Shown: piece after piece, positions 128 to 21,604 of the stretch | How positions within the stretch are numbered: position 1 is the first letter of the stretch | Layout of the letters: every line of letters begins with the position of its first letter | Source: Candidatus Heimdallarchaeota archaeon | GTDB taxonomy: Archaea; Asgardarchaeota; Heimdallarchaeia; JABLTI01 | Reading direction: 5' to 3' | NCBI GenBank assembly: GCA_018238155.1 | Contig: JABCTZ010000039.1 | Span: 1-59,792 of the forward strand | Length of the DNA stretch: 59,792 nt | Translations under genes and position numbers: made by a program | Notes under the pieces: generated by a model | Databases searched by the model: none | Seen by the model: only the letters and a program-made list of their open reading frames with translations | What the model was told of the DNA's origin: nothing

Positions 128-160
128 TGGTGGACGGGATGGAATTTGAATCCACAGGCC
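128..160 (-). repeat. Degenerate copy of the tRNA-Ala(GGC) 3' end (distal att/target-site duplication)
   Basis: tggtggacgggatggaatttgaatccacaggcc vs tRNA 13275-13306 tggtggaccggatggaatttgaatccacggcc: one substitution plus a 1-nt insertion. Confidence 0.85.
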
Positions 161-704
161 CATCTATAATTGAATCATTTTAAAACTCTAAAACGAACTT
201 TAATTTTTGGAACGGACAGCTCCTAAGCGTTTAGGCATTAACAAGATTCTAAAGTTTCATAATGCTAGAACGATTTTTCTTACCGTCAACTTGATCATTA
301 AAGTGGAACGGGATTTAGAAAGACCCCCTAGGATTAAATTGGAAAAAATTTCAAATAAAAAGTATTGAAAGAATAATTCTTACAAAGAAATTAAATGGAA
401 GAAAAAAATTGGAGGACTCGGGTTTACCTCTATTAGATCAGATAAATAGAGATTGAGTACAATCTATTCAAAAATAGCAGTAACTAAATCAGGAATATCA
501 CCAAACTTTGCTGAAGATTTTGAATTGTTCCTTCTTTCTTGGAGGGATGAGCAGAAGTGAAAACAAGATGGAAATAAATGATAGATAAAAGAAAATTTGA
601 CTTTCCATGTGGGGTTATTCAATAAAATTATGTATAAATTTTTGGTTTTGAAAATCTAAAAATGACAATTCACTAAAAAATAAAAAAAAAGGATAGGATT
701 GATA

Positions 705-1838
705 TCAACCAACAATACCATCACTATCAATACAATCAGAAACAAAATCAGTTAGATACATTGCTATTGCAGCCATTGTTACAATAATTCTAATTGCAGT
801 TGCAGCACCTGACGCGGTTATCGCATCTACAAAAGCTTCCGCACCAATAATTATTCCAGCAAGAACTAAATAGAGCAAAACAAGAGACCATTCTGCATCA
901 GTTGCATTAGCTAATGCACTTCCAAAACTCTCTGCGATTTCACCCGCAGCACTGCAGACATGCTCAAAAAATTCAGCCCCTGTCATATCACCATTTACAT
1001 AATAGGCAAATCCAATTAAAAAGTATGATATCGCATATTGATAGAATCCCACAGCTGTTTTCGTGACCAAGCTAAATTCTGCAGGAACAGCAGGAGCTCC
1101 GATTATTAAATTTAAAACTAAAACAATTAGCATTACTAAATGCCAAGATAGCTCAATGCCACTTAATTGGAAAAAAACATAACCTGTAGTAAACTGAGTA
1201 ACATAAAATGTTGATGGAAAATTAAATGATATAGAACTTCCACCACCACTTCCATCATCTAAATCAAATAATGGATTAAAATCAACATCACCCCTAATCA
1301 GGGAATTCTGATATGCCATTACTTTAGTTAGAACTAACTCAGATCTAGTAAGAATATACGCAGAAATTAAACCGCCTAGATTTGAATCAATTTTACCATA
1401 AAAGGTAAGTGCATCATTTTCTGTTAAATCGGTTTGTTGAATAATTTCATTAGAATGGCAGGATAGTATTATATCTTTTGAGCGAGATTTCTCAATTTCA
1501 TTTGAAAAATCATTCCATTTTATTAATTCTTTATTAATTGATATTCCTTTTATAGATCCATGACCGATCCAAATAATCGGTTGCAAGATTCTATTTGATA
1601 TTAAAAGAAATTTGAATGAATTATATTTTAGAATGCTAATTCCTTTTACATTTTCTTGTAGAACCCTACTTGCTGATTTAATAGAAGCATCTTCATCAAG
1701 TTGAACAACAATGGTTCCTGGAACACTTGTTGATAAAGCTTGGATAAAAATAACACTCGATATTAGGCTCGATATTATCAAAATTAAGGAGAATAACCTC
1801 ACATGTTTATATCTACTAGAAATCATTAAAGTCACCAC
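705..1838 (-). CDS. Secreted precursor: signal peptide, caspase-fold-like His/Cys domain, Gly linker, hydrophobic C-terminal domain (putative polymorphic toxin)
   Basis: N-terminal hydrophobic segment; IIWIGHGS...DIILSCHS; LDDGSGGGSS linker; Ala/Gly-rich hydrophobic helices; paralogous to 17657-18727 and 58473-59648. Confidence 0.65.
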   Translation of the reverse strand: MVTLMISSRYKHVRLFSLILIISSLISSVIFIQALSTSVPGTIVVQLDEDASIKSASRVLQENVKGISILKYNSFKFLLISNRILQPIIWIGHGSIKGISINKELIKWNDFSNEIEKSRSKDIILSCHSNEIIQQTDLTENDALTFYGKIDSNLGGLISAYILTRSELVLTKVMAYQNSLIRGDVDFNPLFDLDDGSGGGSSISFNFPSTFYVTQFTTGYVFFQLSGIELSWHLVMLIVLVLNLIIGAPAVPAEFSLVTKTAVGFYQYAISYFLIGFAYYVNGDMTGAEFFEHVCSAAGEIAESFGSALANATDAEWSLVLLYLVLAGIIIGAEAFVDAITASGAATAIRIIVTMAAIAMYLTDFVSDCIDSDGIVG

Positions 1839-1970
1839 TTTTTTCCCAATTAGCCCTTTTCATTAAAAGCTAATTAATATAAGAAAAGCAAATATGTATT
1901 AAAAGATTATGCACATAATATTAAATAGACATGCAGGAAGAATAGCATCATCAATGAGAGGGTTAAACTA

Positions 1971-2855
1971 TTGAAAAGATTAGACACTTATATTACATCT
2001 TATAGGAAAACGGGATTTGCTATTAAATCAGATCAGAAAAAAAAAGCATTGTTTATGAAAACGAGAATAAGACTTATGCCAATTTTCTTAATTGCTTTTC
2101 TAATTGTTGCGGGTTTTGGATTATTTAATATTTTTTTCACTCTACAAGTTATATTGAAATTTGTAATTGCATACTCTTCAGCATTGTCACTTTATTATAT
2201 TGTAATAATAGATTATAATACTGCAATGGATTGGCAAAGTTACTCTACAAGAAATGAAAGTATTAAAGGAAAAATTTTACATTCAATTAAAGAAGGTGTA
2301 ATTTTGTTCGGTATTTCTATGATAATTATCGGGATAATTTACTTAATTCGTTTACCTCAAAACTTAGAAACCTCATTATTAGAAAAAATAACTGGAGATG
2401 AAACACCTTTAAGTTATATGCCAAATACTATAGAGACAATTTTGCTTGCGGGAATAATTTTGTTAACGTTAATTTCAATAATAGCTTATATCAGATGGTT
2501 TTACCTAAGAGGTATAAAAATCACTGGTTATTTTAAAGATAAAGAAAGAATAAAAATTGATTTAAAACCATTAATCTATTGGGGGATAAATCAACTTGTG
2601 TGGTGTTTCATGCTCCCAATTTTAGATGTAATATTTATAGAAACAAGATATCCAGAGACATCTTCAAGATACGAATTTTTTAAGAACATTTTCGCTTCAA
2701 AACCATATATGCTCTTAATAATTCAACTTAGTATTATTCTGTTATTAACAGCTTTTTATTTTATTGATGGGTTTATTGTAAACAAAAGAAGAAAGAATTT
2801 TGTGGAACTTAACTTAATAGATATGGTCAACAATGAAGAAGAGTTTCTGCAATAA
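1971..2855 (+). CDS. Multi-pass membrane protein (candidate immunity partner); true start may be ~2055
   Basis: 294 aa ORF with about 6 hydrophobic segments, divergent from 705-1838 inside the cassette. Confidence 0.7.
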   Translation: MKRLDTYITSYRKTGFAIKSDQKKKALFMKTRIRLMPIFLIAFLIVAGFGLFNIFFTLQVILKFVIAYSSALSLYYIVIIDYNTAMDWQSYSTRNESIKGKILHSIKEGVILFGISMIIIGIIYLIRLPQNLETSLLEKITGDETPLSYMPNTIETILLAGIILLTLISIIAYIRWFYLRGIKITGYFKDKERIKIDLKPLIYWGINQLVWCFMLPILDVIFIETRYPETSSRYEFFKNIFASKPYMLLIIQLSIILLLTAFYFIDGFIVNKRRKNFVELNLIDMVNNEEEFLQ

Positions 2856-3019
2856 TAATTTACTCAATTGGAAAATAATGTTGGATAATCATATTTGATA
2901 AGATAAATTGGATTGAATACAGACTGTACAAAAAAACAGAAAAATAGTAATTGATTACCAATGAAAAAAGAGAACGAAAGAGAAGAAAGAGTTAAAGAAA
3001 CGGAAAAGAGAAAAGAAAC

Positions 3020-3050
3020 TGGTGGACCGGTTGGAATTTGAATCCACGGC
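3020..3050 (-). repeat. Copy of the tRNA-Ala(GGC) 3' 31 nt (att/target-site duplication)
   Basis: tggtggaccggttggaatttgaatccacggc matches 13275-13305 at 30/31 positions. Confidence 0.95.
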
Positions 3051-3107
3051 TTAATATCAAGTTTTAAAATAGAGCCACTCGCGAACAAAATTCTACTTAT
3101 GATTCAA

Positions 3108-3980
3108 TTAACTTGACAGATTAGCAAGCAGTAACTGAAAGTCTCTGTCCGATTTAAGAAAGGAAAAAGCTTCTTCTTTGGAAATTTTTTCCAAGAGTGG
3201 AAAGTCTCTACTCATAGCAAGTCGTAAAGTTTCCATAGTGAATTCTTTATCCTTTTTGAGAGCATAAACAACTGCAATTTCATAGGCAATTGAAGGATCA
3301 TACACCAATGCCTTGTTTGCTAACCAAAGACATTCTAAACTCTCATCATAATCACCTAAAGCTTTGTAGCAAAGTCCTAAATTGCACAAATAATCACCAT
3401 TGAAAGGATCGTTATTACTAGCATTTGTTAAGCACTTCCTTTCTTCCTGTGCATTTCCTTGTTTGTGATGGATAAGGGAGAGATTGAACCAAATAGAAGC
3501 ATTCGATGGTTCAAGTGTTGTTGCTTTCTGAAGAAACTCTAAAGCTTTAGTAAGCTGATCCTTTTCACTATAATAAACTCCAAGAGCAGCTAAGGCAATA
3601 ACATTCAAAGGATCTAATGACAAAATTTCTTCACAGATTTGTTTAATTTTATCTAGTGGACCAAAAAAGTCATAATACATACAAAGGTTTGTTAGATTTT
3701 CAATAGCAGTAGGATCTAGTTGATATGCAGTATCTAGAAACCCCTTTGCAGTGGAAATGTCATCATATTTTAAATGGTACGCTCCAAGCTTGGCATATCC
3801 AACTGCTTGGTCAGGCAAAAGAGCAATTGCTTGTTGGAGCGCTTCCTCAGCTTTAGTAAACCTACGAAGACACAATAAATGATCACTGAGCATAAGGAGC
3901 TCAAAATATTGAGGTGTCTTCTGTTCAAATTCAATCATCGACAAACCAGAGACGTAAGGAGGAATCTTTCTATTTAACAA
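3108..3980 (-). CDS. Tetratricopeptide repeat protein
   Basis: Repeated TPR-like units (e.g. ALEFLQKATTLEPSNASIWFNLS, YLCNLGLCYKALGDYDES). Confidence 0.9.
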   Translation of the reverse strand: MLNRKIPPYVSGLSMIEFEQKTPQYFELLMLSDHLLCLRRFTKAEEALQQAIALLPDQAVGYAKLGAYHLKYDDISTAKGFLDTAYQLDPTAIENLTNLCMYYDFFGPLDKIKQICEEILSLDPLNVIALAALGVYYSEKDQLTKALEFLQKATTLEPSNASIWFNLSLIHHKQGNAQEERKCLTNASNNDPFNGDYLCNLGLCYKALGDYDESLECLWLANKALVYDPSIAYEIAVVYALKKDKEFTMETLRLAMSRDFPLLEKISKEEAFSFLKSDRDFQLLLANLSS

Positions 3981-4101
3981 TTATTAACAACCTTCAGGAA
4001 ATGCTAAGAAAACACTAAGAAAAATCCTTTATAAAAGACTAAATAGAAAAGCCAAAGAGGATATTGTAGTATTTTTGCTAGATTGTCATTTTAACCTCAA
4101 A

Positions 4102-4269
4102 TTATTTCTCTTCAGGTTCTTCTTTTCTACAACGAAAATGACCATTTTCGAGTGTAACTAGTATTATATCTCCTTTCTTTATCTCAAGCTCTTGAGCAAT
4201 TTCTTTTGGAATGTTAACCATCAATGTTCTATTAAGGTTAGCTACTTTTCGCCTAAATTTTACTGGCAT
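4102..4269 (-). CDS. AbrB/MazE/SpoVT-family DNA-binding protein (55 aa, missing from the ORF track)
   Basis: Manual translation MPVKFRRKVANLNRTLMVNIPKEIAQELEIKKGDIILVTLENGHFRCRKEEPEEK contains the swapped-hairpin signature vxIPkeiaxxLxixxGD. Confidence 0.85.
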   Translation of the reverse strand: MPVKFRRKVANLNRTLMVNIPKEIAQELEIKKGDIILVTLENGHFRCRKEEPEEK

Positions 4270-4287
4270 AATTAATACCCTAGTCTA

Positions 4288-4353
4288 TTATAGGCAGCCA
4301 TAAACTTTAAATATTCCTCTTGCCTATAATATAGTTATAGGCAGATTATAGGT
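4288..4353. promoter_or_regulatory. Repeated TTATAGGCA boxes in a divergent promoter (putative operator)
   Basis: ttataggca at 4288-4296 and 4335-4343, inverted tgcctataa at 4321-4329, partial ttatagg at 4346-4352. Confidence 0.6.
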
Positions 4354-6490
4354 GTTGTTATTGAAAAAAGAATTAGATAAAGTCAAAAGGAAGAAACTGC
4401 TTTACAGCTATAAACAACCAAGCGGAGGAACAGCATTCGAAGTTTATACTGATGGGACTCTGATAGTCAAAACAAAGATAACAAGTAATGGGCTTAATAT
4501 ACCTAAAATGGCTGAAATCTATTTTGATTGCTCAAAGTTAGAAAAAAAATCACAGAACATTCCAACCACTTGGGAAATTAAACGAGAAAATGGGAAAACT
4601 GAAGTCGTTCAAGGAAAAAGCAAAATCGGAGTTTACAAGAATTCATATTTCATTCAACAAATTGCAGATGAAGGTTACAGAAAAATCAAAACCAGAATAA
4701 GAGCAACTTGTACAATTCAGGTTATTTCAAAACGGTTCCATACATCATTTTTTCAAAAGCTTGCTAAACTTAGAGATAATATGTTGTTAGAATCCAGAGA
4801 GAAACTGGAACCAATACTTTTTGGTGGAGAAAAAAATACCGAGTTCACTATCTATAGAAACTTTACAGGACAACTATTCATTTATAGTAAAGTAAGTTAT
4901 AATCAAAACAAAATCTTGCTTTCTGATGAAATAGCAAGATATATTGAAAATTGGCATAATAATCGAGAAGAATATTTTGTATGCTCTTTTAACGAACAAC
5001 CAGCAATGGTCGTGAAAGCAAAATCTCGACCAGGAAATAGAGAAGGAAGATCCTTCAAAGAAATCTTTTTTCATATTCAGGATATACCTGAAGAATCCTT
5101 TATTTATTTCACCAATATAGATTTGAAACTTTCAAAAAATGCCATACAAGACTTGCAACTCAAACAAAACTTGCTACAAAAAGGTTACTCTATAAAGCAA
5201 TTAACAACTAATTGGTTGGATAAACCAAAACATAAAAATGAAAATTTCGCGAGTGACGTTTGGACAATAATTAAACAAGCATTTACTGATAAGGAAGCTA
5301 AAATTTTCTCAGAGGTAAAAATAACATGCGCAAGTAAAGAAGAACAAACGAAGGTTGTTGATGGTCTCTTAGTGAGTGAGAAATTTTTAGGTTTAATAGA
5401 GATTAAAACTTCAGAGAAAATTAAAAATACTGTTTTAGATGAAGTCATTGGTGAGCTGGCATTACTACAAGAACAGCTTGGGAGCAAGAAAAACTTTATC
5501 TTGTTTTTTATCAATGCAGAAGTGATAGCATCAAAATTAAAGAAAAACATTACAAAACTCTATGGGATGGAACATAATATCATCTTAGTAGGTAAAAAAG
5601 AACTAAGTGTTCTTCTCATGAATCCAAAATTGTTATTAGAAAGAGTGAGAGAGCATTTGTATTTACTGGATGAGAAATCAAGCCAATCTCAAATTTATCA
5701 TCCTACTGAATTAACACTAACATCAAAAGAATCTCTCGAAAAACAGGCATACAGTCTTTTGGAAAAACTTTCGTTAAACTCACATGAATCACTCTCACTT
5801 ATTGAACAATACTGTTTCTTAATGAATATTGAAAAGTCAGATTTCTTCAAACTCTACAAACTGTTAAATGAACAACTTAGCAAAAAAATTGCTTCTGTGA
5901 AAGATTTGTCTATTCGACGAATGCTTTCATCAAGACATATCTTTGATTGTGAAATTTTACTATTACTCCATACAGAGCTTTCTCTTAATAGCAATTATTT
6001 GATTTTAGAAGAAGAGAAAAACAAAGGGTTAAAGTTTGCAGAAGAATATAGCATTTTATTACGAAATTGGAATGTCATCATGAACTCCTTGCCATCAATG
6101 TGTCGAATCCTTGGGTTTAAAATTTTGCAATCAGGCACAGGAATCGTTTTTGAAAGGCAGGTTCTAAAACTCTTAGAAAGAGAAGGATATCAAGTGGTTT
6201 CTAATGTTTTGCTTTCACTACATGGAAAACATTTCGAAATTGATCATTTAGTGTTTAAAAATGACTCAATGGAAATAATCAGCTGTAAGGATCGAAGCCA
6301 TTACCAATACATTCCAAATCTCTATTCAAAAATAGCATTAGCATTGGGACAAGTGATTCTTTATAGGAGAATTTTTAAAAAATCAAACGGACAACTATTC
6401 GTTAGAGTGAAAAAAAGCGACCAGAAGGAGTTACAGAAGAGGTTCAGAAATTTCTTCGCGACTAATTATTCGCTTGTTTTTACTATATAG
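4352..6490 (+). CDS. Large protein with two PD-(D/E)XK nuclease-like domains
   Basis: VVDGLLVSEKFLGLIEIKTS; C-terminal Mrr/NERD-like GIVFERQVLKLLEREGY...FEIDHLVF...IISCKD. Confidence 0.65.
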   Translation: MLLLKKELDKVKRKKLLYSYKQPSGGTAFEVYTDGTLIVKTKITSNGLNIPKMAEIYFDCSKLEKKSQNIPTTWEIKRENGKTEVVQGKSKIGVYKNSYFIQQIADEGYRKIKTRIRATCTIQVISKRFHTSFFQKLAKLRDNMLLESREKLEPILFGGEKNTEFTIYRNFTGQLFIYSKVSYNQNKILLSDEIARYIENWHNNREEYFVCSFNEQPAMVVKAKSRPGNREGRSFKEIFFHIQDIPEESFIYFTNIDLKLSKNAIQDLQLKQNLLQKGYSIKQLTTNWLDKPKHKNENFASDVWTIIKQAFTDKEAKIFSEVKITCASKEEQTKVVDGLLVSEKFLGLIEIKTSEKIKNTVLDEVIGELALLQEQLGSKKNFILFFINAEVIASKLKKNITKLYGMEHNIILVGKKELSVLLMNPKLLLERVREHLYLLDEKSSQSQIYHPTELTLTSKESLEKQAYSLLEKLSLNSHESLSLIEQYCFLMNIEKSDFFKLYKLLNEQLSKKIASVKDLSIRRMLSSRHIFDCEILLLLHTELSLNSNYLILEEEKNKGLKFAEEYSILLRNWNVIMNSLPSMCRILGFKILQSGTGIVFERQVLKLLEREGYQVVSNVLLSLHGKHFEIDHLVFKNDSMEIISCKDRSHYQYIPNLYSKIALALGQVILYRRIFKKSNGQLFVRVKKSDQKELQKRFRNFFATNYSLVFTI

Positions 6491-6505
6491 GTTGTTGACA
6501 CGTAA

Positions 6506-7183
6506 ATGCCTTTCCTTCGAAAAAAGATTCAAGAAACGCTCTCTGAAAATATCTCGCAGAAAATATTTCAATTAGAACTTGCAGATGAATCATTTATTGA
6601 ATTACTAAATGAGCTATTAGTAATCCTTTCAGTAGATGAACTTAATCTTCTACTTGAATTTGCTGTTGAGGACGAGGAATGGTCATCTGAGAAAAAAATC
6701 CTGCTCTTACAAGAACTTCTAAGCAATCAGAACTCAGTTATCTGTGAAAAGGCGATCATTTATCTTGAACCATTCATTGGGAAAAAAATCATCCCTCTCA
6801 TTGAACACCTTGTTACCAACCAATCACATGGGGTTCGTTCTCGAGTATTTTGGGTGTTAGCTAAATATGCCACAGAACGCGATTTGACTCTAGAGATAAT
6901 CGATGAATTAAAAACCGCTTCAGAAGATAATGAGCAAATCTTTCTTGCAGCAGCACTCTACCAGAGAAATAATTCTGCTTCCTCTCTCGAGATGCGATTT
7001 CTAAAAGATTACTATATCCAACAATTTTATGACCCTAAAATCGATGAACTGAAGGTAAGCTTAGTTGGCAAACAAGGTTTAGCTGCGAAAGTAATAGGTC
7101 TTATCCTCTGGGAGGCTGGAATAGAACTCTATTCTACAGGATCATTACAAAGTGAGAATATGCTCTGGCTCATTGAAAAATGA
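6506..7183 (+). CDS. HEAT-repeat-like helical protein
   Basis: Leu-rich helical repeats (LVTNQSHGVRSRVFWVLAKY). Confidence 0.55.
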   Translation: MPFLRKKIQETLSENISQKIFQLELADESFIELLNELLVILSVDELNLLLEFAVEDEEWSSEKKILLLQELLSNQNSVICEKAIIYLEPFIGKKIIPLIEHLVTNQSHGVRSRVFWVLAKYATERDLTLEIIDELKTASEDNEQIFLAAALYQRNNSASSLEMRFLKDYYIQQFYDPKIDELKVSLVGKQGLAAKVIGLILWEAGIELYSTGSLQSENMLWLIEK

Positions 7184-7242
7184 TAAAAACTACTTTTGTG
7201 CTGTAAGTTTAAGTAGTCAAACACCTCAAAGCTAATGATAAA

Positions 7243-8931
7243 ATGTGTGTGTTTTGGTGTTACTTATTGACTCCTCTTACCTGGCAAAATGATCCCTCAT
7301 TGCTCGATTCTGAACCCACTCCAGTGAATGAATGGCTCACAGCTAACAATCTTTTATCAATGGAATTGCACGGGAATAACTCAAATGCTAATAAAAACCT
7401 TGCTTCGATTGAAAGCAATTGGTTTTCTTCTTGTAATAATAGTGTTTGTTCGTTGAACCTGTATTCTATTCTCGTGCGGAAAATCGACTTTGTTCGAGAA
7501 AAAACTAGTGACAGGATTCTTGCCAGGTTTCCTTTTCTCGTTCTCTCAGAAGAAGAAAATGAGTTGATTCAAAAGAATATCTTACTGATTGCTGAATGTG
7601 CGCGAGATTATTTCTACAAATCGATCAATTCCAGTATTATGGATTGGAAGAGGAGATTATTGACTTATCTTAAGCGAGGAGCAATGCCTTATCCTCTCTA
7701 CCGTTGTGCTTGTGAGATTTTAAAACGTCAATTAGTTAATCCGGAAGTAGAATCATTAACTTTTGAAAGTGCTCGTGGAAAACGATATGCTATTCCAACT
7801 AAGATTACACCAACAATTGCCTATCTCTGTGGCGTAATTAATGGTGATGGTCATCTTAGTACTCACTGGTTACGAGTGGTGGATGAAACAAAGGAGCATA
7901 TAGAATTGATTTCGAAACTATTTGAAAAACAATTCAATGATGCCGGAGAGATTTTCAAAACGAGAAATGCAAACGCTTGGAATGTAGAATTGCGTTCATC
8001 CTCAGCAGTTCGGTTATTCAATTTCTTGACGGACCAAACGATTCAGGGAGCAAAATATGACTCTTTGCGAGAGCCTTTAATATTCAGAGAATTAGGTGAA
8101 CCACATCGCAACCTTTACTGGAGAGGAGTAATGGATGCAGATGGTTCGTATAAAAACCACATCTCATTTGCAAGTGCAAGTAAGCTTTACACTGAGGATT
8201 TTCAACATTTCTTACAAATAATAAATATTAGAAGTAAAATTTATCAAATGAAGAATGGATCTTATTTGCTAACAATTCCAATTGATTTCAAATTACCTTT
8301 TGCAAAACAGATAGGAGTACTTAATCCTAAGAAAAAACAAGATTTTTGTAAATTGCTACAAAGAAAGTCTATCGTTTTTAATGGTCTTGATGAGAAAAAC
8401 ATCACTTCTAATGGTTTTTTTGATTTAACTAAAATAAGCCCTCTCTATGTCAAAGGATTATCTAATATCCTAAGAGAATTTCGTAAGGATAAAACATATA
8501 CTGCTATCGAGCACGAATTATCTTTAACTAGAGGACAATATTTCTATTATGAACAAGGAACAAGAGCAATTCCATTTGAACTATTATTTCAGTTACTTGA
8601 TATCCAATCTTTGGATTCAAATTCGCTTATGCAAAAACTTGATACGCTAGAAGAGAGCATAATTTTTCAATCTTCAACTTCTACACTCATAAGGTTACCT
8701 TTGAAACCAACATCAGATGTTATCTTAGTTATGAGTCATTTACATCCTCTAAGTAATTGGACTCGAATCGTTCAACCAACACAAAAAATTAAGGATAAAA
8801 TACAAGAATTATTTGGAATATGTGCAAAGTCAAATCGAATACGTGGAAATATCTTACTTAGATTTCTTACTACATTTGGTGATTATACAACAATTAATGT
8901 AAAAGAACTTGTTATTGATGATGTTTTATAA
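7243..8931 (+). CDS. LAGLIDADG endonuclease-like protein with C-terminal HTH
   Basis: Two LAGLIDADG helices (AYLCGVINGDG, YWRGVMDADGS) and XRE-like TYTAIEHELSLTRGQYFYYEQG; start uncertain. Confidence 0.8.
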   Translation: MCVFWCYLLTPLTWQNDPSLLDSEPTPVNEWLTANNLLSMELHGNNSNANKNLASIESNWFSSCNNSVCSLNLYSILVRKIDFVREKTSDRILARFPFLVLSEEENELIQKNILLIAECARDYFYKSINSSIMDWKRRLLTYLKRGAMPYPLYRCACEILKRQLVNPEVESLTFESARGKRYAIPTKITPTIAYLCGVINGDGHLSTHWLRVVDETKEHIELISKLFEKQFNDAGEIFKTRNANAWNVELRSSSAVRLFNFLTDQTIQGAKYDSLREPLIFRELGEPHRNLYWRGVMDADGSYKNHISFASASKLYTEDFQHFLQIINIRSKIYQMKNGSYLLTIPIDFKLPFAKQIGVLNPKKKQDFCKLLQRKSIVFNGLDEKNITSNGFFDLTKISPLYVKGLSNILREFRKDKTYTAIEHELSLTRGQYFYYEQGTRAIPFELLFQLLDIQSLDSNSLMQKLDTLEESIIFQSSTSTLIRLPLKPTSDVILVMSHLHPLSNWTRIVQPTQKIKDKIQELFGICAKSNRIRGNILLRFLTTFGDYTTINVKELVIDDVL

Positions 8932-9201
8932 AAAGTCATTCAAATTCCCACGTAGATATTACTAAAATGTAGGAGAGAGGTATTTCCGCAGCATTTTTGT
9001 TACTTAGATGGCTCTAGATGAGTTTTTTCTCATTCTTAGCGGAATGTTTTTTTCGAAAGTCCGAAAAAATATCCTTTCTCTTCGAAAACATTCGAAAGTC
9101 CGATTTTTTTCCACTAAAATTGGTCAAAAAAAGCTTGAAAAACGTTTTTTCAAATGCTACATAGAGAGTACGTTTTTGAGTGAAAATTATGCTTTTTTTC
9201 C

Positions 9202-10008
9202 CTAAAGGCCGAAAATTTTCCATTGATTTATGTGGATTCTTTGGCAAATTTCACGATATAAACATCTAGTAGTGGCAAAATCACAATCTTTTTTCTTCTT
9301 GATCAAGTTAGGATTCATCATTTTAGTGCGAATTTCCTCGAGATGAACACTAAATGAAGCTAAAATATCAGCTGTTACTTTCGCTGTATAATATTCTCTG
9401 CTTCTATAGTAATAAGCACCTATCTCTGACACTTTTGTTATGTCTGGCAGCTCTTGGATAGGGAACTGATTGGTTAGAAGAAAAGAGTAAAACAACAGTT
9501 CTTCTTCATCAAATTCACTTGGTAGAGATTTATACTCAACAACTCGGCAATGACCTTGCTTATCCACTTGATCTATTCGATCGATTTTACCACAAAGAGA
9601 ATCAGTTCGCAAATATAATTCAACAGCTAGCGGTTCCCAAAAATCAGGCTCCTGTTGATAACGTCTAATTTCAAAAGCCAGAAAAGCCTTTTTCCAAGGA
9701 ACATTTCTATCCTCAACGTTCATTTGTGGGTTGAAGTTATTTTGAATGTCGGTACCATAATTTTCGTAAAATAATTGTAACCACAAATGTTTCTCGATGC
9801 CTTCTTGTAAAAACCCTTCATAATCAGTGTAATTTATAGTCCCTTTACTTTGACCTTGTGATTTATGTAATTCTTTGATTAGATAAAACTGGAATGGGCA
9901 TTCTAAATAAGCTATGAATTCAGTTTTATTAAGGATGAAATCTTTCTCAAGCAATTTTCTCAAAAAGTAATGCAGAATTTTCTTTATAAATGACAAAAAG
10001 ATAGCCAT
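9202..10008 (-). CDS. cas4: Cas4-like PD-(D/E)XK nuclease with four conserved Cys
   Basis: YLECPFQFYL...LCGKIDRID...VVEYKS...ELLFYS...CDFATTRCLYREIC (1+3 Cys Fe-S staple pattern). Confidence 0.75.
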   Translation of the reverse strand: MAIFLSFIKKILHYFLRKLLEKDFILNKTEFIAYLECPFQFYLIKELHKSQGQSKGTINYTDYEGFLQEGIEKHLWLQLFYENYGTDIQNNFNPQMNVEDRNVPWKKAFLAFEIRRYQQEPDFWEPLAVELYLRTDSLCGKIDRIDQVDKQGHCRVVEYKSLPSEFDEEELLFYSFLLTNQFPIQELPDITKVSEIGAYYYRSREYYTAKVTADILASFSVHLEEIRTKMMNPNLIKKKKDCDFATTRCLYREICQRIHINQWKIFGL

Positions 10009-10061
10009 TTAGCTCTTTAAGAAGGATTTTTGTCGATGGTATAAATAGTAGCAATAAAAAG

Positions 10062-10730
10062 GTGTTAGAAGATTTGGCTGAGAGCTATAAAAAATCGACA
10101 AATGTCGAAGCAGATGTTATAAGATATTTAGTATGGAGAGAAATAATAGGAGAAGAAGGATGGTTCGAGAAAGGATTGAAAGAACTAGCCTGTTGTGTTG
10201 GGCGACACGAAAAGTCAATTGGAGAAGCTGTAAAGTTATTAGAAGCAAAAGGAATGATTCAAAAAGAAAAAAATGACAATAAGCTTTGGATTAAGCACAC
10301 ATTAACCAATGATGAGTTGTATACTAGAATGGCGTTTATTGACCCAATGTTTTGCAATACAGAGTCAATGCACGAATTCCGGAGTGACCTTCTAAATGAG
10401 ATTAAAAGATTAGAAGAGGAAATCATAACTACAAAAGAAGCTAATGCTAGAAATCAAGGGAGAGAGACAATAATCGACGCAGTCCTTGGGGAGGTAACAG
10501 AATCAAATATAGATAAACTTGTGACAAACTTTGAAGAGTTAACTTATGAAAACAGCAACAAATCACATGATGAATGTATAATGGATGCATTGGAGACATT
10601 TAGAGATGATGTATTTAGTAAACATGAGGAAACTTTCGAAGAAGAAAAATCTGATGAATGGATACAAGAAACATACGAATTATATTGGTCGAGAAGGAAG
10701 GAAGAGGGGAACAAAGAAAAGGTTCAATGA
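10062..10730 (+). CDS. Winged-HTH plus coiled-coil protein
   Basis: LKELACCVGRHEKSIGEAVKLLEAKGMIQK wHTH pattern; first gene of the cas1 operon. Confidence 0.7.
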   Translation: MLEDLAESYKKSTNVEADVIRYLVWREIIGEEGWFEKGLKELACCVGRHEKSIGEAVKLLEAKGMIQKEKNDNKLWIKHTLTNDELYTRMAFIDPMFCNTESMHEFRSDLLNEIKRLEEEIITTKEANARNQGRETIIDAVLGEVTESNIDKLVTNFEELTYENSNKSHDECIMDALETFRDDVFSKHEETFEEEKSDEWIQETYELYWSRRKEEGNKEKVQ

Positions 10731-10739
10731 TGTGATAGT

Positions 10740-12623
10740 TTGGCAAAAGATATCCAAAATGATATAGGCAAAATTCTGCAGGCAAGATCAAAAAACTATC
10801 CAGTAACGATTGATGAGCTAGTGATAGAGCTAGGATATTCGAATGGTGTAATTCATAGACACATCAAGATATTGGAAGCAAATGGTTTAGCTGAAGCAAA
10901 ACGAGTTGCAAGACCAAAGGGGGGAGTGACCTATTATAAAACACCAGAAGCAGAGTGGCCAAAACATCTTGGCAAGAAGTGTTTTGATTGCCAGAACAGA
11001 GGGAAGACATTACGCTGTATATACTATGAAGAACTAGCAGAGGAGGGAATAGTAAAAGAAGAGTATAGATCGGGTGTTATTTTAACAAGAAATACTTACG
11101 CTTGTGATGATTTCATAGAGAGAGAGATTCGCTGGAAAAAGAAAAAATATGAGGTTTTTTTAGCTGAAAATAGAAGAATAACAATATCAAAAGAAGGGCT
11201 TAAGATAACCTACCATTGTGCAAATAAGGAATGTCAAGCGGAACTCCCAACCTTGGGAAATGGATTAATAGCTAAACTGGGAAGTTCAGTAATAAGATGT
11301 GATGCCTGTAACTCTTTTTATAAAACGCTTTATGACCAAAAAAAGGAACAGTTCTTTGTTCATTATAACATCGAGAAAGGACTGGAATACAAGAAGAATT
11401 TTGCAAAAGCAACGGGTGGGGAAGAGCCAGAATTACTCTATTCAAGCGACCAATATGGAATCGTTATCCATGACCTACGGGATAGCAATTTTAATTTTAG
11501 AACAAAAACGTTGACAAACAACAATTGGGTGGGAAAATTAGGAGAGATAGGTTATCTGGTTGCTAAAAGAAAAGAGGATTATGAACCGCTAGTAGAAATA
11601 TTAGATGGAAAGGGATACAGGGACATACAAGTCATCCTAGGAGCAGATAAACTAGTCAGTCCGCCACCAATAAAACAACAGGTAGGACTTTTGAGATTGC
11701 TACGAGAGATAAAAATCATCAACAAAGAATTTTGCACTTCTATGCTGTTTAGTAGAATAACTGTGATTGAAAAAATTCACCAACAGTTTAACAAAGAAAA
11801 AGAAGTAGTGGTAAGAAAAGCAGTAAAAGCAATTGAACAGGCAATCGTGGAGGTGGAAAGGAAAGGATGGATAACACCAAAAGAATGGAATGCTTTTGAG
11901 ATGAGAGCGGGGAATGCAATGTGGAGCGTAGTAAAAGTGTATTTGAAAACTTTAGGAATTGACTTTCCAGGAAGAATGAGATGCAGATTAGTAGAAGATA
12001 TTTCAAAACCACATAGATGCTTCTACGCCTATAGTCCAATTGATGCTTTGATAAATGGAGTGTATGGAATAGCAGGGGAGTTTGTGAAAGAATATTGTTA
12101 TGAGATAGGTTTTTGCTGGGATGGATTGCCAGGATTATGTCATAAAAAAACGAGAGGAGGAGAGTTCGCATTCCATCTAGATATGCGAGAGCAAGAAAAG
12201 ATACTAACGTTACCATACCTACTAGAAGCACTACAAATAGGGACAATACAAATGGAAGAAATGCAATACTTAAGAGGAAGAAATAGACAGAAAATCTACT
12301 TTGTAAAACAAAAAACAGAATTAGAAGAGCAGATCATTGAAGTGGTCGAAGAGATGAAAGGAGGAGAGATAAACGGGGGAAAAGCAAAGAACGTGATAAG
12401 TAACTATTACTTGCAAGGGAAACAATGGTTGAATAACTTCCAAAGAGGGAGTAACCAGTTAGGAGTAGAACATCATGGAGTAGATTACCAACCATGGGCA
12501 ATCATGAAAGAGAAAGTATGGGAACAACTGGGAAGAGAAGAAAAAGAGAGATTGATAAACGGCTTGAAAAGAGAACATAGAAAAATAGGGTTCAGACCAT
12601 TAAAAGTGATGGAGATAAATTGA
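10740..12623 (+). CDS. cas1: Solo Cas1 homologue (casposase/aCas1-like) fused to N-terminal wHTH and Cys-rich Zn-binding regions
   Basis: C-terminal Cas1 motifs in the expected order: FEMRAGNAMW (E), FPGR, SPIDALINGVY (cf. DPvNAlLNYgY), GLCH (H), FHLDMREQEK (D/E). N-terminal wHTH TIDELVIELGYSNGVIHRHIKILEANG; CFDC, CANKEC and CDAC Cys pairs. Confidence 0.8.
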   Translation: MAKDIQNDIGKILQARSKNYPVTIDELVIELGYSNGVIHRHIKILEANGLAEAKRVARPKGGVTYYKTPEAEWPKHLGKKCFDCQNRGKTLRCIYYEELAEEGIVKEEYRSGVILTRNTYACDDFIEREIRWKKKKYEVFLAENRRITISKEGLKITYHCANKECQAELPTLGNGLIAKLGSSVIRCDACNSFYKTLYDQKKEQFFVHYNIEKGLEYKKNFAKATGGEEPELLYSSDQYGIVIHDLRDSNFNFRTKTLTNNNWVGKLGEIGYLVAKRKEDYEPLVEILDGKGYRDIQVILGADKLVSPPPIKQQVGLLRLLREIKIINKEFCTSMLFSRITVIEKIHQQFNKEKEVVVRKAVKAIEQAIVEVERKGWITPKEWNAFEMRAGNAMWSVVKVYLKTLGIDFPGRMRCRLVEDISKPHRCFYAYSPIDALINGVYGIAGEFVKEYCYEIGFCWDGLPGLCHKKTRGGEFAFHLDMREQEKILTLPYLLEALQIGTIQMEEMQYLRGRNRQKIYFVKQKTELEEQIIEVVEEMKGGEINGGKAKNVISNYYLQGKQWLNNFQRGSNQLGVEHHGVDYQPWAIMKEKVWEQLGREEKERLINGLKREHRKIGFRPLKVMEIN

Positions 12624-12640
12624 AGGGAGAGTAAAAAAAA

Positions 12641-13213
12641 GTGACAGTAGAAAAAGAACTGCAAAAACTAGCAAAACTAACAGAAGAAAGTACAAAAGAA
12701 ACAATAGCAGAGCAAATAAAAAAAATAGGGGAAAAAGGGGGAGAAGTAGTCTATCAAATAATTATAACATTAACAAAAGAAAGGATGGAAAGAGGATACT
12801 CAAAGAGATACTCATTAGCAGAATTAGAAGAGAGGTTACCATGGAAGAAAAGCAGACTAATAGAGAAACTGCAAAGAACAGTGAAAGAAGAAGTACTAAA
12901 ACACGAGAAAAGAAAATATCAACTAAACAAAGAAAATGAATTAGTGAAAAGGATATGGAATTACTACAACGAACCAAACTATCAAGAAAAAGAAAAAACA
13001 GAAGAAATTAGAACCTTGATACAAAAAAAGAGAGAATTGGTTAAAGAACTGGAGAAAGAAGAGAAAAAGAAAAGGAGAAAATATCGAGAAGCAACAAAGA
13101 AAGAAGAAGAGGAATTTAGAAAGGAAATAATTGCAGAATATGAAGAAGGGGGAGAAGCAAGAAACCTTGTAACGAAAAAAACACTAGAAGCAATAGGATA
13201 CAAAGAACAATAA
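12641..13213 (+). CDS. Winged-HTH protein with charged coiled-coil tail
   Basis: YSLAELEERLPWKKSRLIEKLQRTVKEEVL; last gene of the cas1 operon, next to the tRNA. Confidence 0.6.
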   Translation: MTVEKELQKLAKLTEESTKETIAEQIKKIGEKGGEVVYQIIITLTKERMERGYSKRYSLAELEERLPWKKSRLIEKLQRTVKEEVLKHEKRKYQLNKENELVKRIWNYYNEPNYQEKEKTEEIRTLIQKKRELVKELEKEEKKKRRKYREATKKEEEEFRKEIIAEYEEGGEARNLVTKKTLEAIGYKEQ

Positions 13214-13274
13214 AAAAATAATTGATTATTGGTGGAAAAGAAGGATTTTAAGAGACGGAAAAGAGAAAATAAAT

Positions 13275-13382
13275 TGGTGGACCGGATGGAATTTGAATCC
13301 ACGGCCTCCTCCATTTTTGTCGGTAGAAACACATTTCTACCCATTGCCAAGGAGGCGATCTTCCAGACTGATCTACCGGCCC
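13275..13382 (-). tRNA. tRNA-Ala: tRNA-Ala(GGC) with 31-nt intron at position 37/38 (13314-13344) and encoded CCA
   Basis: Reverse complement folds as GGGCCGG TA GATC-AGTCTGGAA-GATC G CCTCC-TT GGC A[intron]T-GGAGG AGGCC GTGGA-TTCAAAT-TCCAT CCGGTCC A CCA; intron hairpin GGTAGAAA/TTTCTACC. Confidence 0.96.
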
Positions 13383-13445
13383 AAAATATTCTTCTTGTCT
13401 TTTCTTTCGTTGTTTTTTCTTTTATGAATCTTTCGTTTTGTGTGG

Positions 13446-13652
13446 TTACTTCGTTTCTTTTATCCTTACTTCCAGACAATCCGTTATTGTTACTCTATTG
13501 CGGCATATTGGGCATTTTTCTTTTTCTTTCAACCACTTTTCTGTCAAGTTTTTTTTCGAAATCCCATTATTTCAGTCAAGTGATATTTTTTTCTCTTTTT
13601 CCATCTATTTTTGTCTTTGTTGTCAATCATTTTTCTTCTTTCACTTCTTCCA
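13446..13652 (-). pseudogene. Decayed 3' fragment of the RING-finger membrane protein family
   Basis: DNA aligns with 18887-19095 and encodes KWLKEKEKCPICRNRVTITDCLEVRIKETK*, with disruptions upstream. Confidence 0.8.
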
Positions 13653-13705: not shown

Positions 13706-14029
13706 ATGACAGAGATGATACCAGAACCAGTTGTAATTGCTGGCTTGAAAAAAGCGCTTGATGATCTTAAAGTAGATTACTCTTCTATTTTCTTATTCTG
13801 CAGTAGAGCAGGAACTGATTTTACTGTAGAAAGTGATTGGGATTTTCTGATAATTCTCAAGAAAAAGTTACCTCTTAAAGACCAACATTCTCTTCGGTAT
13901 CAAATTTTCCACCGCTTTCATATCTCCTTTCCATTAGTTTCGATTGATTTAATTTTAAAAGATAAACGAACTTTTGCTATTGAGAAAAAGATTGTTAATA
14001 CCATTTCTAATGAAGCATCTCTTGAGTGA
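13706..14029 (+). CDS. Minimal nucleotidyltransferase (MNT antitoxin), possibly degenerate
   Basis: IFLFCSRAGTDFTVESDWDFLII (GS...DxD motif with G>C). Confidence 0.8.
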   Translation: MTEMIPEPVVIAGLKKALDDLKVDYSSIFLFCSRAGTDFTVESDWDFLIILKKKLPLKDQHSLRYQIFHRFHISFPLVSIDLILKDKRTFAIEKKIVNTISNEASLE

Positions 14030-18727: not shown

Positions 18728-18886
18728 ATTATTGTAGCATTTAACCAACAAACCAGAACAAAAATGTTCTCCCAAAAAAGATGGGATCAAAGAAAGGGTT
18801 TTTTTGATTCTCATCTAATTACTATTTTTTTCATTTTGCTTTCTTACTCATTTCTTTTGTCCAATCAATTCGCTCGTTTTGTGGAG

Positions 18887-19606
18887 TTACTTCCTTTCTT
18901 TTATCATTACTTCAGGGCAATCAGTTATTGTTATTCTATTGCGGCATATTGGGCATTTTTCTTTTTCTTTCAGCCACTTTTCCAGCAAGTCCTTTTTTGC
19001 GTAATGCCTACATTTCGGGCAGACGACAATTTTGTCTCCTTCTACATCTAGTCTAATTCCTGTTATCATGCATTTTTCTTCTTTCACTTCTTCTACGAAG
19101 AATATTTTTGTTATTGGTATTATCGTTTCTGCTTCCTCTATTGCTTCTTTTTTCTCTCCCTCGCTTTCTTCACTTCTCTCTAAATAACCCAACAGATAAT
19201 TGCACCTTTGTCTTACAAATGCTTTTTTCAAGGTTGTATTAACACCCATATCTTCCAAGAAGGATCTTATTATCTCTTCTAGAGAATTGCTTTTCGTATC
19301 TGCTAAAGCATAAATACCCATCATAACCGTTATCACTTCAAAAGGAGAACTTCTTTCTATCATTCTAATTCTTTCTTTTTGATTTCCTTCTGTTACTAGA
19401 TCTGTTAGTTGCAGATATACTTTCTTCCTTTTGAGTAATTGTATCAAAAAGTATACACCTACTGGCAGAAAAAGGAAGCAACATACGATTATTTTAATTG
19501 TCATTTCTCGCTTTTGTTGCCCCCAATAATACTCCAACAAATCGCCTTCATTGGGGATAACTTCCTCGTCCTCATAGCTATTCTTCTCTTTTGGTTTCAA
19601 AATCAA
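18887..19606 (-). CDS. Membrane protein with C-terminal RING-like Zn finger
   Basis: TM helix; CMITG...CPKCRHYA...WLKEKEKCPICR. Confidence 0.8.
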   Translation of the reverse strand: MILKPKEKNSYEDEEVIPNEGDLLEYYWGQQKREMTIKIIVCCFLFLPVGVYFLIQLLKRKKVYLQLTDLVTEGNQKERIRMIERSSPFEVITVMMGIYALADTKSNSLEEIIRSFLEDMGVNTTLKKAFVRQRCNYLLGYLERSEESEGEKKEAIEEAETIIPITKIFFVEEVKEEKCMITGIRLDVEGDKIVVCPKCRHYAKKDLLEKWLKEKEKCPICRNRITITDCPEVMIKERK

Positions 19607-20875: not shown

Positions 20876-20887
20876 AATTAAGTGAAG

Positions 20888-21604
20888 TTATTTCCTTTCT
20901 TTTATTCTTACTTCAGGGCAATCCGTGATTGTTATTCTATTTCTGCATAGAGGACATTTTTCTATTTCGTTCAGCCACTTATCCAGTAATTCCTTTTTCG
21001 CGAAATGTCCACATTTCGGACAGGCGACAATTTTTTCTCCTTTTACGTCTATTCTAATTCCTGATATCATACATTTTTCTTCTTGTACTTTATCCTCTTC
21101 TACAAAGTATAGTTTTGTTATTGGTATTATCGTTTCTGCTGTTTCTGTTAGTTCTTTTGTTTTGAATCTACTTTCCTTTCTTCTCTTTGCTGTCCATAGT
21201 AAATCATCACATAAAGATCTTGCAGATGATGCTTTTATTGTTGCTTTAAATTCTAAAGCTTTCATGAAGACTCCTATTGTCTCTTCAAGTGCACTACTTT
21301 TCATATCTGCTAAAGCATAAAGCCCCATCATAATAGCTCTAACATTAAAAGAATCAATATTGTCATTTACTAGTCGGACTAGTTCTTTTTGATTCCCGTC
21401 TCGTATTAACTCAGTTATCTTCAGATAAGTTCGCTTACTTTTGCTAAATCGTATCAAATAGAATATTCCAACAGGAAGAAAAAAAATGAACCCCATGGAT
21501 ATATAAGCTATTAGTAGGAACTTTTGCTCTGTCCAATATCCCACTAATAAATTTCCATCATCGATTTCCTCATAACTATTCGTTTCATATGTTTCAAAAA
21601 CCAA
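20888..21604 (-). CDS. Membrane protein with C-terminal RING-like Zn finger (paralogue of 18887-19606)
   Basis: CMISG...CPKCGHFA...WLNEIEKCPLCR; shares AETIIPITK and NRITITDCPEV with the paralogue. Confidence 0.8.
   Translation of the reverse strand: MVFETYETNSYEEIDDGNLLVGYWTEQKFLLIAYISMGFIFFLPVGIFYLIRFSKSKRTYLKITELIRDGNQKELVRLVNDNIDSFNVRAIMMGLYALADMKSSALEETIGVFMKALEFKATIKASSARSLCDDLLWTAKRRKESRFKTKELTETAETIIPITKLYFVEEDKVQEEKCMISGIRIDVKGEKIVACPKCGHFAKKELLDKWLNEIEKCPLCRNRITITDCPEVRIKERK

Follow-up and report, generated by a model that had tools for sequence, protein, structure and literature searches.

We analysed the tRNA-Ala(GGC) locus of a Candidatus Heimdallarchaeota archaeon, at which 3'-terminal pieces of the tRNA gene separate blocks of genes, one of them encoding a Cas1-like protein and a Cas4-like nuclease. 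The window, i.e. the whole stretch of DNA under study, comprises the first 59.8 kb of contig C43 in a genome of 4.08 Mb and 46 contigs. The tRNA-Ala(GGC) gene that anchors the array is located on the minus strand at 13275-13382 and has a genomically encoded CCA end. With introns allowed (option -i), ARAGORN reports it as c[13275,13382] with an intron of 31 nt and the encoded CCA, and the Rfam model RF00005 matches at 13278-13382 on the minus strand with 49.5 bits, the sole Rfam tRNA in the window. In its default mode ARAGORN missed this gene and the intron option was needed; similarly, intron-bearing tRNAs at related loci were missed at the Rfam gathering threshold.

The 3' 31 nt of the tRNA, consisting of T-arm, 3' strand of the acceptor stem and CCA, are present in three copies, all in the same orientation on the minus strand. 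Copy S0 is part of the functional tRNA and forms the proximal attachment (att) site (13275-13305, no mismatch), copy S1 lies at 3020-3050 (one mismatch) and copy S2 at 128-158 (three mismatches and an extra base at the 5' edge). Chance matches of the 31-mer were not obtained in any of 100 shuffles. The first-pass annotation of this DNA had noticed the recurrence at 3020 and 128, including the indel, and had described the copies as degrading with distance from the tRNA; our 31-mer search agrees on both points (0, 1 and 3 mismatches at 13275, 3020 and 128). Window position 1 is the end of the contig, where the leftward search for repeats stops. The contig thus ends 127 nt past S2, and the array may extend beyond it.

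Directly after the CCA, a pyrimidine-rich arm (13202-13274, minus strand) follows, which according to sequence comparison is conserved with the arm after S1 (2931-3019, minus strand) and with those after Ala-type copies on other contigs. Positions 2980-3050 and 13235-13305 share 89% identity over 71 nt, and 2931-2968 and 13202-13239 share 74% over 38 nt. Since the likeness of S0 and S1 extends into the element side, each copy is adjoined by the end of a related element; the arm after S1 is that of an older one. S1 marks the boundary between element 1 (3051-13274, 10.2 kb), a complete mobile element, and block 2 (159-3019, 2.9 kb), which lacks an integrase and is either the remnant or a passenger cassette of a related element of greater age.

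The tRNA-proximal part of element 1 encodes five proteins that recur at other loci. F1 (7243-8931, plus strand, 562 aa) resembles LAGLIDADG endonucleases with two motifs, flanked by N- and C-terminal extensions. Its best matches in the Protein Data Bank (PDB) are the archaeal homing endonucleases 2dch and 1dq3, and the acidic residues of both motifs are invariant. It is followed by a Cas4-like PD-(D/E)XK nuclease on the minus strand (9202-10008; Pfam PDDEXK_1, 9.7e-13; PADLOC Cas4, 5.6e-5) and by F5 (10062-10730, plus strand), a winged helix-turn-helix (wHTH) protein of 222 aa with weak DnaD-like and HVO_A0114 similarity that is conserved in the closer elements. Next come the Cas1-like protein (10740-12623, plus strand, 627 aa), the candidate integrase, and directly after its gene F3 (12641-13213, plus strand), a K/E-rich helical protein of 190 aa. 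The positions given for the Cas1-like and Cas4-like genes in the first-pass annotation are correct.

The remaining genes of element 1 are accessory or cargo. F7 (6506-7183, plus strand, 225 aa, HEAT-like repeats) and F6 (4352-6490, plus strand, 712 aa, NERD and Hjc-like nuclease signatures) are found in a subset of elements, and a TPR-repeat protein (3108-3980, minus strand) is encoded at the distal end. Block 2 carries genes for two predicted membrane proteins without family match (705-1838, minus strand; 1971-2855, plus strand). No integrase is among its genes and its cargo is not conserved in congeners, in which a search for a second copy of block 2 gave weak, partial DNA matches only.

Several observations concern the tRNA gene itself and its surroundings. 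In a related strain, represented in a public sediment run, 32 extra bases are inserted at window position 13299, in the T-stem and thus within the 31-nt att segment; possibly, they form a second intron, of non-canonical type, by which the integration target is disrupted. The stretch 13433-13650, immediately upstream of the tRNA, is repeated at 18874-19093 and 20887-21090 with 75-81% identity, and a 50-nt part of it is also found upstream of other tRNA genes within the genus, so that this repeat is probably a promoter-region motif. Farther upstream, 13706-14029 is a small nucleotidyltransferase open reading frame (ORF) of the MNT-like antitoxin type. Its place corresponds to the tail of the tRNA-Val array in congeners, and no Val-type copy is left in the window. 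Additionally, contig C36 (L048, 4.6 kb) is bounded by two Ala-type 31-mers and holds cargo genes that also occur in elements of C17 and C42; it probably belongs to one of the tRNA-Ala arrays, from which it was left out in the assembly.

The conserved module and its Cas1-like protein

The order of F1, Cas4-like nuclease, F5, Cas1-like protein and F3 constitutes a module that is found repeatedly. Five full-length Cas1-like paralogues are encoded in the genome, each within the same gene set, and a diverged member of 501 aa belongs to an element at tRNA-Ala(TGC) (hhalign probability 98.9%). The gene set also occurs at nine loci of other Heimdall metagenome-assembled genomes and on 20 metagenome contigs. 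Common to all elements are F1, the Cas4-like nuclease, the Cas1-like protein and F3. The Cas1-like family was detected in eight of ten congeneric genomes besides the present one, whereas 50 genomes from other genera of the class had none. So far, the element family is known from one Heimdall-group genus and matching sediment metagenomes only.

The position of the module relative to tRNA genes is constant at one end. The Cas1-like gene invariably has F3 as its next gene. In the window (Ala), on C13 (Val), in L035 (Val) and in L053 (Pro), a distance of 1-60 nt separates the stop codon of F3 from the 3' end of a convergent tRNA; in L034/L049 and L065, a tRNA-3'-like fragment comes after F3. The module on contig C6 is located between tRNA-Leu(TAG) and a 44-nt copy of the 3' part of this tRNA, together with a Cdc6/Orc1 gene, which would fit an episomal replicon. 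The insertion targets seen are thus the 3' ends of tRNA-Ala, -Val, -Leu and -Pro, and the target switches among Cas1-like proteins that are just 22-45% diverged. In the genome as a whole, seven of the 43 tRNA genes have extra copies of their 3' end, and such copies are present in congeners as well (for example, five of Ala type in G009). About 200 nt after F3 of a related element (L041:9420-9450), we also noticed 28 nt on the opposite strand that read as the 5' acceptor strand and D-arm of a tRNA whose 3' half is missing from the vicinity.

The affiliation of the Cas1-like protein becomes apparent only at the level of the family and of the structure. Neither Pfam (PF01867) nor NCBIfam nor a single-sequence search of the PDB gave a Cas1 match, the only detected domain being the N-terminal wHTH. 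The family profile, which alone links the protein to Cas1 by sequence, finds the Methanosarcina mazei casposase 6opm as best PDB profile match (E 3.6e-7) and the Archaeoglobus Cas1 4n06 (E 2e-4), with alignments that span the His and Asp/Glu motifs. The AlphaFold (AF2) model is of high quality (predicted local distance difference test, pLDDT, 91.6; predicted template modelling score, pTM, 0.86), and the top 50 matches of a Foldseek comparison with the PDB are all Cas1 or casposase. Superposition on 4n06_B gave a Z-score of 21.5 and a root-mean-square deviation of 3.1 A over 253 residues, that on the casposase 6opm_B a Z-score of 21.2. The architecture comprises an N-terminal winged helix (residues 1-70), a Cys-rich Zn-ribbon region and, at residues ~301-626, the Cas1 fold with its beta-domain and catalytic helical domain.

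Within the family, the catalytic residues are conserved: E387 (E/D in 22 of 22 sequences), H468 (21 of 21), D481 (21 of 21) and E484 (E/D in 21 of 21); N439, R412 and R416 are conserved throughout as well. An exhaustive search of 1.8 billion representative proteins yielded just 26 relatives. Cas1 homology of 10740-12623 had been set beforehand as the point on which the first-pass annotation was to be refuted, and it stands: the Cas1 fold is found in the model, by Foldseek and by the profile, and the E/H/D/E residues are intact. The ORF thus encodes a genuine, very diverged Cas1-family protein, which from its residues looks catalytically competent.

For the neighbouring F3, a predicted complex with the Cas1-like protein reached a median score of 0.34 (best control 0.00), a mark that 58 of 80 solved complexes attain, as do 2 of 110 mismatched pairs; scores between this mark and 0.60 came from 7 of those 80 solved complexes and from both mismatches. 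Contact agreement between the runs was at least 38% and the pLDDT of the partner at least 61. F3 may be a subunit of an assembly with the Cas1-like protein, which the prediction weakly suggests.

No other recombinase was recognised in the element. Among its ORFs, including small ones, no polymerase, Cas2, transposase, or tyrosine or serine recombinase was matched, in accordance with the earlier statement that the Cas1 homologue is the only recombinase-family gene of the element. In particular, no family-B DNA polymerase (PolB) is encoded by the ORFs in 159-13274, and no terminal inverted repeats pair the ends of 3051-13274. The genome has one canonical Cas1 of a clustered regularly interspaced short palindromic repeat (CRISPR) system, on contig C15 and apart from the elements. 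None of the ~53 spacers in the three CRISPR arrays of the genome, which are likewise located elsewhere, matches the tRNA-linked elements. One spacer, from the array at C12:7829-8984, matches C24:36311-36351 perfectly over 41 nt, representing either a self-targeting spacer or an integrated target.

Sister arrays, empty sites and the origin of the repeat copies

The tRNA-Val and tRNA-Leu loci of the same genome are informative as to where the flanking copies come from. At tRNA-Val (C13), the live 3' end and the copy beyond an intact, Cas1-bearing element of 10.5 kb differ at 10 of 28 positions. Four more copies farther out resemble the first distal one, and all five are genus-typical: this type is the tRNA-Val 3' end in G001, G004, G005 and G006. 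The live 3' end, on the other hand, was found in no other genome of the genus. The distal copies extend over L044:14530-19797 (C13:175530-180797) with spacers of 571, 3020, 856 and 792 nt, and between them are two fragments of F3 genes, one with 93% protein identity to F3 of the window.

The tRNA-Val genes of different species have the intron and a good deal of the 5' part in common; the T-arm and the 3' strand of the acceptor differ wholesale, the acceptor 5' strand carries changes matching those of the 3' strand, and synteny of the upstream flank extends as far as the promoter. For tRNA-Val(GAC), we observed that the intron is identical in three species of the genus and that parts of the 5' exon differ strongly (L044/G000, L091, L094, L097 and L035), which suggests exons evolving, or being replaced, faster than the intron.

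At tRNA-Leu, comparison of the two copies, proximal and distal, with the tRNA of G001 shows six variable sites, and the variants are split complementarily between the two copies. For five of these sites, one crossover close to position 16 in the block of 44 nt would suffice. Duplication of a target or repeat gives identical, host-derived copies and therefore cannot yield the Val and Leu patterns across intact elements. The simplest reading of these alleles is that each element brings along a tRNA-3'-like att segment, which takes the place of the host's own, the latter being left at the distal junction. Two further observations would also fit: repeats differ in length from one tRNA to another (31 nt at Ala, ~35 at Val, 44 at Leu), and the target switches among related Cas1-like proteins.

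The first-pass annotation had postulated variable mobile cassettes at the tRNA, and had named a fixed gene order without empty site in relatives as a finding that would speak against them. Congeners contradict such a fixed order, as they show both empty sites and different cargo. In G001-G004, tRNA-Leu(TAG) is adjoined directly by the flank that is found after the distal copy (C6:47965) in the present genome, with 90% identity in G001; these loci are true empty sites. In G005 and G006, tRNA-Ala(GGC) is followed by other DNA, with a tRNA-Gly 2-5 kb on and no module. G008 has tRNA-Ala(GGC), a block of 1.06 kb, a copy of the 31-mer and then the same flank as G005, again without module. From the empty sites and the differing downstream DNA in relatives, we conclude that these elements move and that their cargo varies.

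Two upstream insertions were considered as a hidden integrase or an element-borne tRNA and rejected. The 5.7-kb insertion upstream of tRNA-Leu(TAG) is an independent one with a TnpB/IS605 OrfB-type gene (L047:2345-3706, C6:38344-39705), which the closest congener does not have. At tRNA-Val, the additional upstream DNA encodes a GNAT acetyltransferase and is likewise an independent insertion.

A further array is present at tRNA-Lys(CTT) on contig C19 (L043:8800-14158). Here, five copies of the 3' 31-33 nt go along with unrelated spacers of ~850-1580 nt; four spacers hold one toxin-antitoxin pair each (MNT/HEPN in two, VapBC-like in two) and the fifth encodes one membrane protein. No integrase was found inside this array.

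Mode of integration

On balance, we regard it as probable that the locus is a head-to-tail stack of elements integrated at the 3' end of tRNA-Ala(GGC) by the Cas1-like protein, with att copies borne by the elements. According to this proposal, the Cas1-like enzyme would act as integrase, probably together with F3 and the Cas4-like nuclease, and its landing site would be the T-arm and 3' end of the tRNA gene, as with casposases. The element would carry its own copy of the tRNA 3' segment as an attP-like site. Upon integration, the element's copy would take over as 3' end of the tRNA, and the old segment would be shifted to the far side of the element. Repeated insertion at the live tRNA would build up a polar array, in which older copies and elements decay. 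We favour the Cas1-like protein as integrase because its catalytic residues are conserved, its position at the att end is constant, no other recombinase is encoded, and casposases provide a precedent.

Several points speak against this proposal. Strand transfer by Cas1 through a 3'-OH normally uses linear ends and leaves a target duplication, in contrast to the conservative, att-type outcome proposed here, and another conserved protein, the LAGLIDADG endonuclease, could be the site-specific enzyme instead. As the copies in the window differ by 1-3 bases only, the argument against duplication is drawn from the sister arrays, and a short one might be concealed at the crossover. Within the Val array, an arm that is 95% identical to the element arm follows a copy of the other tRNA-like type, a pairing that would not be predicted if copy and arm strictly moved as one, and for which we assume gene conversion between array members. 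The Leu element has the opposite orientation relative to its tRNA. Finally, no excised circle or attP junction was seen in IMG/VR, metagenome contigs or short Logan contigs: IMG/VR contains no relative and no metagenome contig has overlapping ends, so that no free or circular form was found, and the short Logan contigs of public runs with the locus include neither a 3051/13274 joint nor one across the element, being uninformative either way. In contigs from public runs, the loose end at position 128 matches nothing in the genome.

The LAGLIDADG protein is the basis of the main rival explanation, in which F1 cuts the tRNA target, the tRNA-like site of the element or both, after which the episome is inserted by recombination or end joining of the host through the short tRNA segment common to both, in a homing or Campbell-like manner; the Cas1- and Cas4-like proteins would then serve, for instance, in end processing, replication or defence against rival elements. 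F1 is indeed present in every element with both motifs kept and their acidic residues invariant, a crossover within a homologous segment would account for the mosaic make-up of the two copies, proximal and distal, and the free switching of tRNA targets among Cas1-like proteins of 57-78% identity is more easily understood from element-borne homology than from targeting by the protein. Also, Wu et al. 2022 proposed a homing-endonuclease-like integration factor for HeimM2, a different Heimdall element. Yet the homology is one-sided and merely 31-44 nt long, LAGLIDADG genes are frequently selfish passengers, the att end is occupied by the Cas1-F3 pair rather than F1, and the family with a precedent at tRNA 3' ends is Cas1, in the form of casposases. 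The F1 family is, moreover, without significant match in two complete genomes of another genus. We therefore think this explanation unlikely, and F1 may instead be a partner of the Cas1-like integrase, e.g. by opening an episomal att site and thus providing 3'-OH ends for Cas1.

The mechanism advanced in the first-pass annotation was that Cas1 copies its target at each insertion: staggered cuts around the 31-nt segment would duplicate it in the manner of a CRISPR repeat, and the locus would represent an intermediate between casposons and CRISPR or a Cas1-driven array. The length of 31-35 nt and the hairpin do resemble a CRISPR repeat, the window copies hardly differ and become more degenerate away from the tRNA, the protein has kept the fold and the catalytic residues of Cas1, and casposases as well as Cas1-Cas2 duplicate their targets (PMC9939771). 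This claim nevertheless finds no support in the sister arrays, where the copies are different alleles: those flanking the Val element differ at 10/28 positions, the five distal ones representing the genus allele and the live end being unique, and at Leu the six variable sites are shared complementarily between the copies. A repeat length that depends on the tRNA is not expected of a fixed molecular ruler either, and Cas2 is missing from the element. We consider duplication quite unlikely.

In an integron-like alternative, the Cas1 module would be a resident platform at the tRNA that takes up and shuffles small cassettes, either promoter-less or self-contained, each with a tRNA-3'-like recombination site at its end and mobilised in trans. 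The toxin-antitoxin spacers of the tRNA-Lys array, with no integrase inside, keep this alternative alive, and block 2 and the 1.06-kb block of G008 are integrase-less, too. The module, however, sits between the tRNA and the first copy, and older pieces of F3, F1 and Cas1 are found deeper in the arrays, which argues that the module itself is an inserted unit; remnants consisting of toxin-antitoxin genes only can be explained by selective retention after decay, and no cassette was seen in two different arrays. A resident platform thus appears very unlikely to us. Even less probable, and close to being dismissed, is that a tyrosine recombinase, encoded elsewhere or too diverged to be recognised, integrates the elements with the Cas1-like protein as mere cargo. 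An element-borne tRNA 3' segment, direct repeats and tandem stacks are the typical outcome of tyrosine integrases, and two PF00589 genes exist in the whole genome. These are located on contigs C8 and C19, neither in nor near any array, which speaks against the tyrosine integrase elsewhere that had been named beforehand as a possible source of the att copies. No element ORF matches a recombinase family, and an autonomous family spreading between species should bring an integrase of its own; what all elements have in common is the genes for F1, F3 and the Cas4-like and Cas1-like proteins.

Relation to known systems and significance

The closest relatives in lifestyle are casposons, self-synthesising, Cas1-solo elements as known from Aciduliprofundum boonei and Methanosarcina mazei. 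The 3' ends of tRNAs serve casposases as integration sites, the T-loop being a determinant, and tandem arrays can form (PMC9939771). The elements described here share with them a Cas1-family protein as sole integrase candidate, insertion at tRNA 3' ends with involvement of the T-arm region, the capacity to carry Cas4-like and HTH genes and a conserved extra endonuclease and to form tandem head-to-tail arrays, and the lack of Cas2 and of a CRISPR array (PMC9939771). Unlike casposons, they have neither a family-B DNA polymerase nor terminal inverted repeats. Their direct repeats are 31-44 nt long, versus target-site duplications of 14-15 bp in casposons, and are not duplicates of the host target. 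The Cas1-like protein, with ~630 aa, an N-terminal wHTH and Zn-ribbons, is below the Pfam threshold for Cas1, LAGLIDADG takes the place of the HNH endonuclease, and one member carries Cdc6/Orc1.

In other respects, the elements resemble those that use tyrosine integrases to target tRNA genes (pNOB8/SSV-type elements, bacterial genomic islands): a tRNA 3' copy borne by the element, direct repeats, a regenerated tRNA and decaying tandem arrays. The Val and Leu allele patterns point to such an element-borne att copy, whereas instead of a tyrosine recombinase a Cas1-family protein is encoded at the att end. With CRISPR adaptation by Cas1-Cas2 and Cas4 they have in common the Cas1 fold and catalytic residues, a Cas4-like nuclease, a polar array, a hairpin repeat of ~31 nt, and the newest unit beside a leader-like sequence, here the tRNA body; in contrast, Cas2 is absent, the "spacers" are gene blocks of 0.6-21 kb rather than ~30-40 bp, and the repeats do not arise by duplication. 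Integrons likewise consist of cassette arrays with short recombination sites among which toxin-antitoxin cassettes are common (here at tRNA-Lys), but neither IntI nor an attC structure was found here, tRNA 3' ends serve as the sites, and the inserted units include the recombinase module. The family is therefore casposon-like in its target and presumed integrase and tyrosine-integrase-like in its att logic, and fails the definition of a casposon with respect to polymerase, inverted repeats and target duplication.

As to prior art, the nearest is the work of Makarova et al. 2020 (CRISPR J 3:156), which, as summarised by Koonin and Makarova (PMC8730458), describes extremely diverged Asgard Cas1 homologues and distinct Cas4 forms, some of them possibly associated with novel mobile genetic elements; our comparison refers to this summary. 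The first-pass annotation had attributed a report of Asgard Cas1 elements at tRNA-Ala to Wu et al. 2022. That paper deals with Heimdallarchaeum mobile elements at tRNA genes, and its main text has 0 mentions of Cas1 or casposon, which does not bear out the attribution. As regards a link to HeimM2 of Wu et al. 2022, the LAGLIDADG and Cas1-like families gave marginal matches only in two complete genomes of another genus. Full-text searches, as far as the searchable library goes, found no description of Cas1-linked tRNA 3'-copy arrays in Asgard archaea.

The mobile elements that had been predicted for Asgard Cas1 homologues are here made concrete, with defined ends, targets, empty sites and core genes. 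In addition, the family would be a testable system for the evolution of target recognition by Cas1, which would involve the tRNA T-arm in a leader-like context.

Two roles of Cas1 are known, as integrase of casposons and as integrase of CRISPR spacers. If our proposal is true, a family without polymerase and inverted repeats, with a diverged Cas1 as the only recombinase-like gene, would broaden these roles. One could go further and envisage a third lifestyle, in which Cas1 acts as site-specific integrase of polymerase-less episomes and of small cassettes, including toxin-antitoxin ones, each with a tRNA-3'-like att site, giving rise to polar, integron-like arrays at many tRNAs and rewriting T-arms and acceptor ends; we put this forward as a tentative idea and at present rather doubt it.

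For the host, the consequence would lie in the tRNA genes themselves. From the alleles at hand, the elements appear to swap the 3' segment of the tRNA into which they insert. If true, such segment swapping would explain why, within the genus, a variable T-arm and acceptor end of tRNA-Val and -Leu is found beside a conserved intron, and it may bear on the odd intron positions in archaeal tRNA genes.

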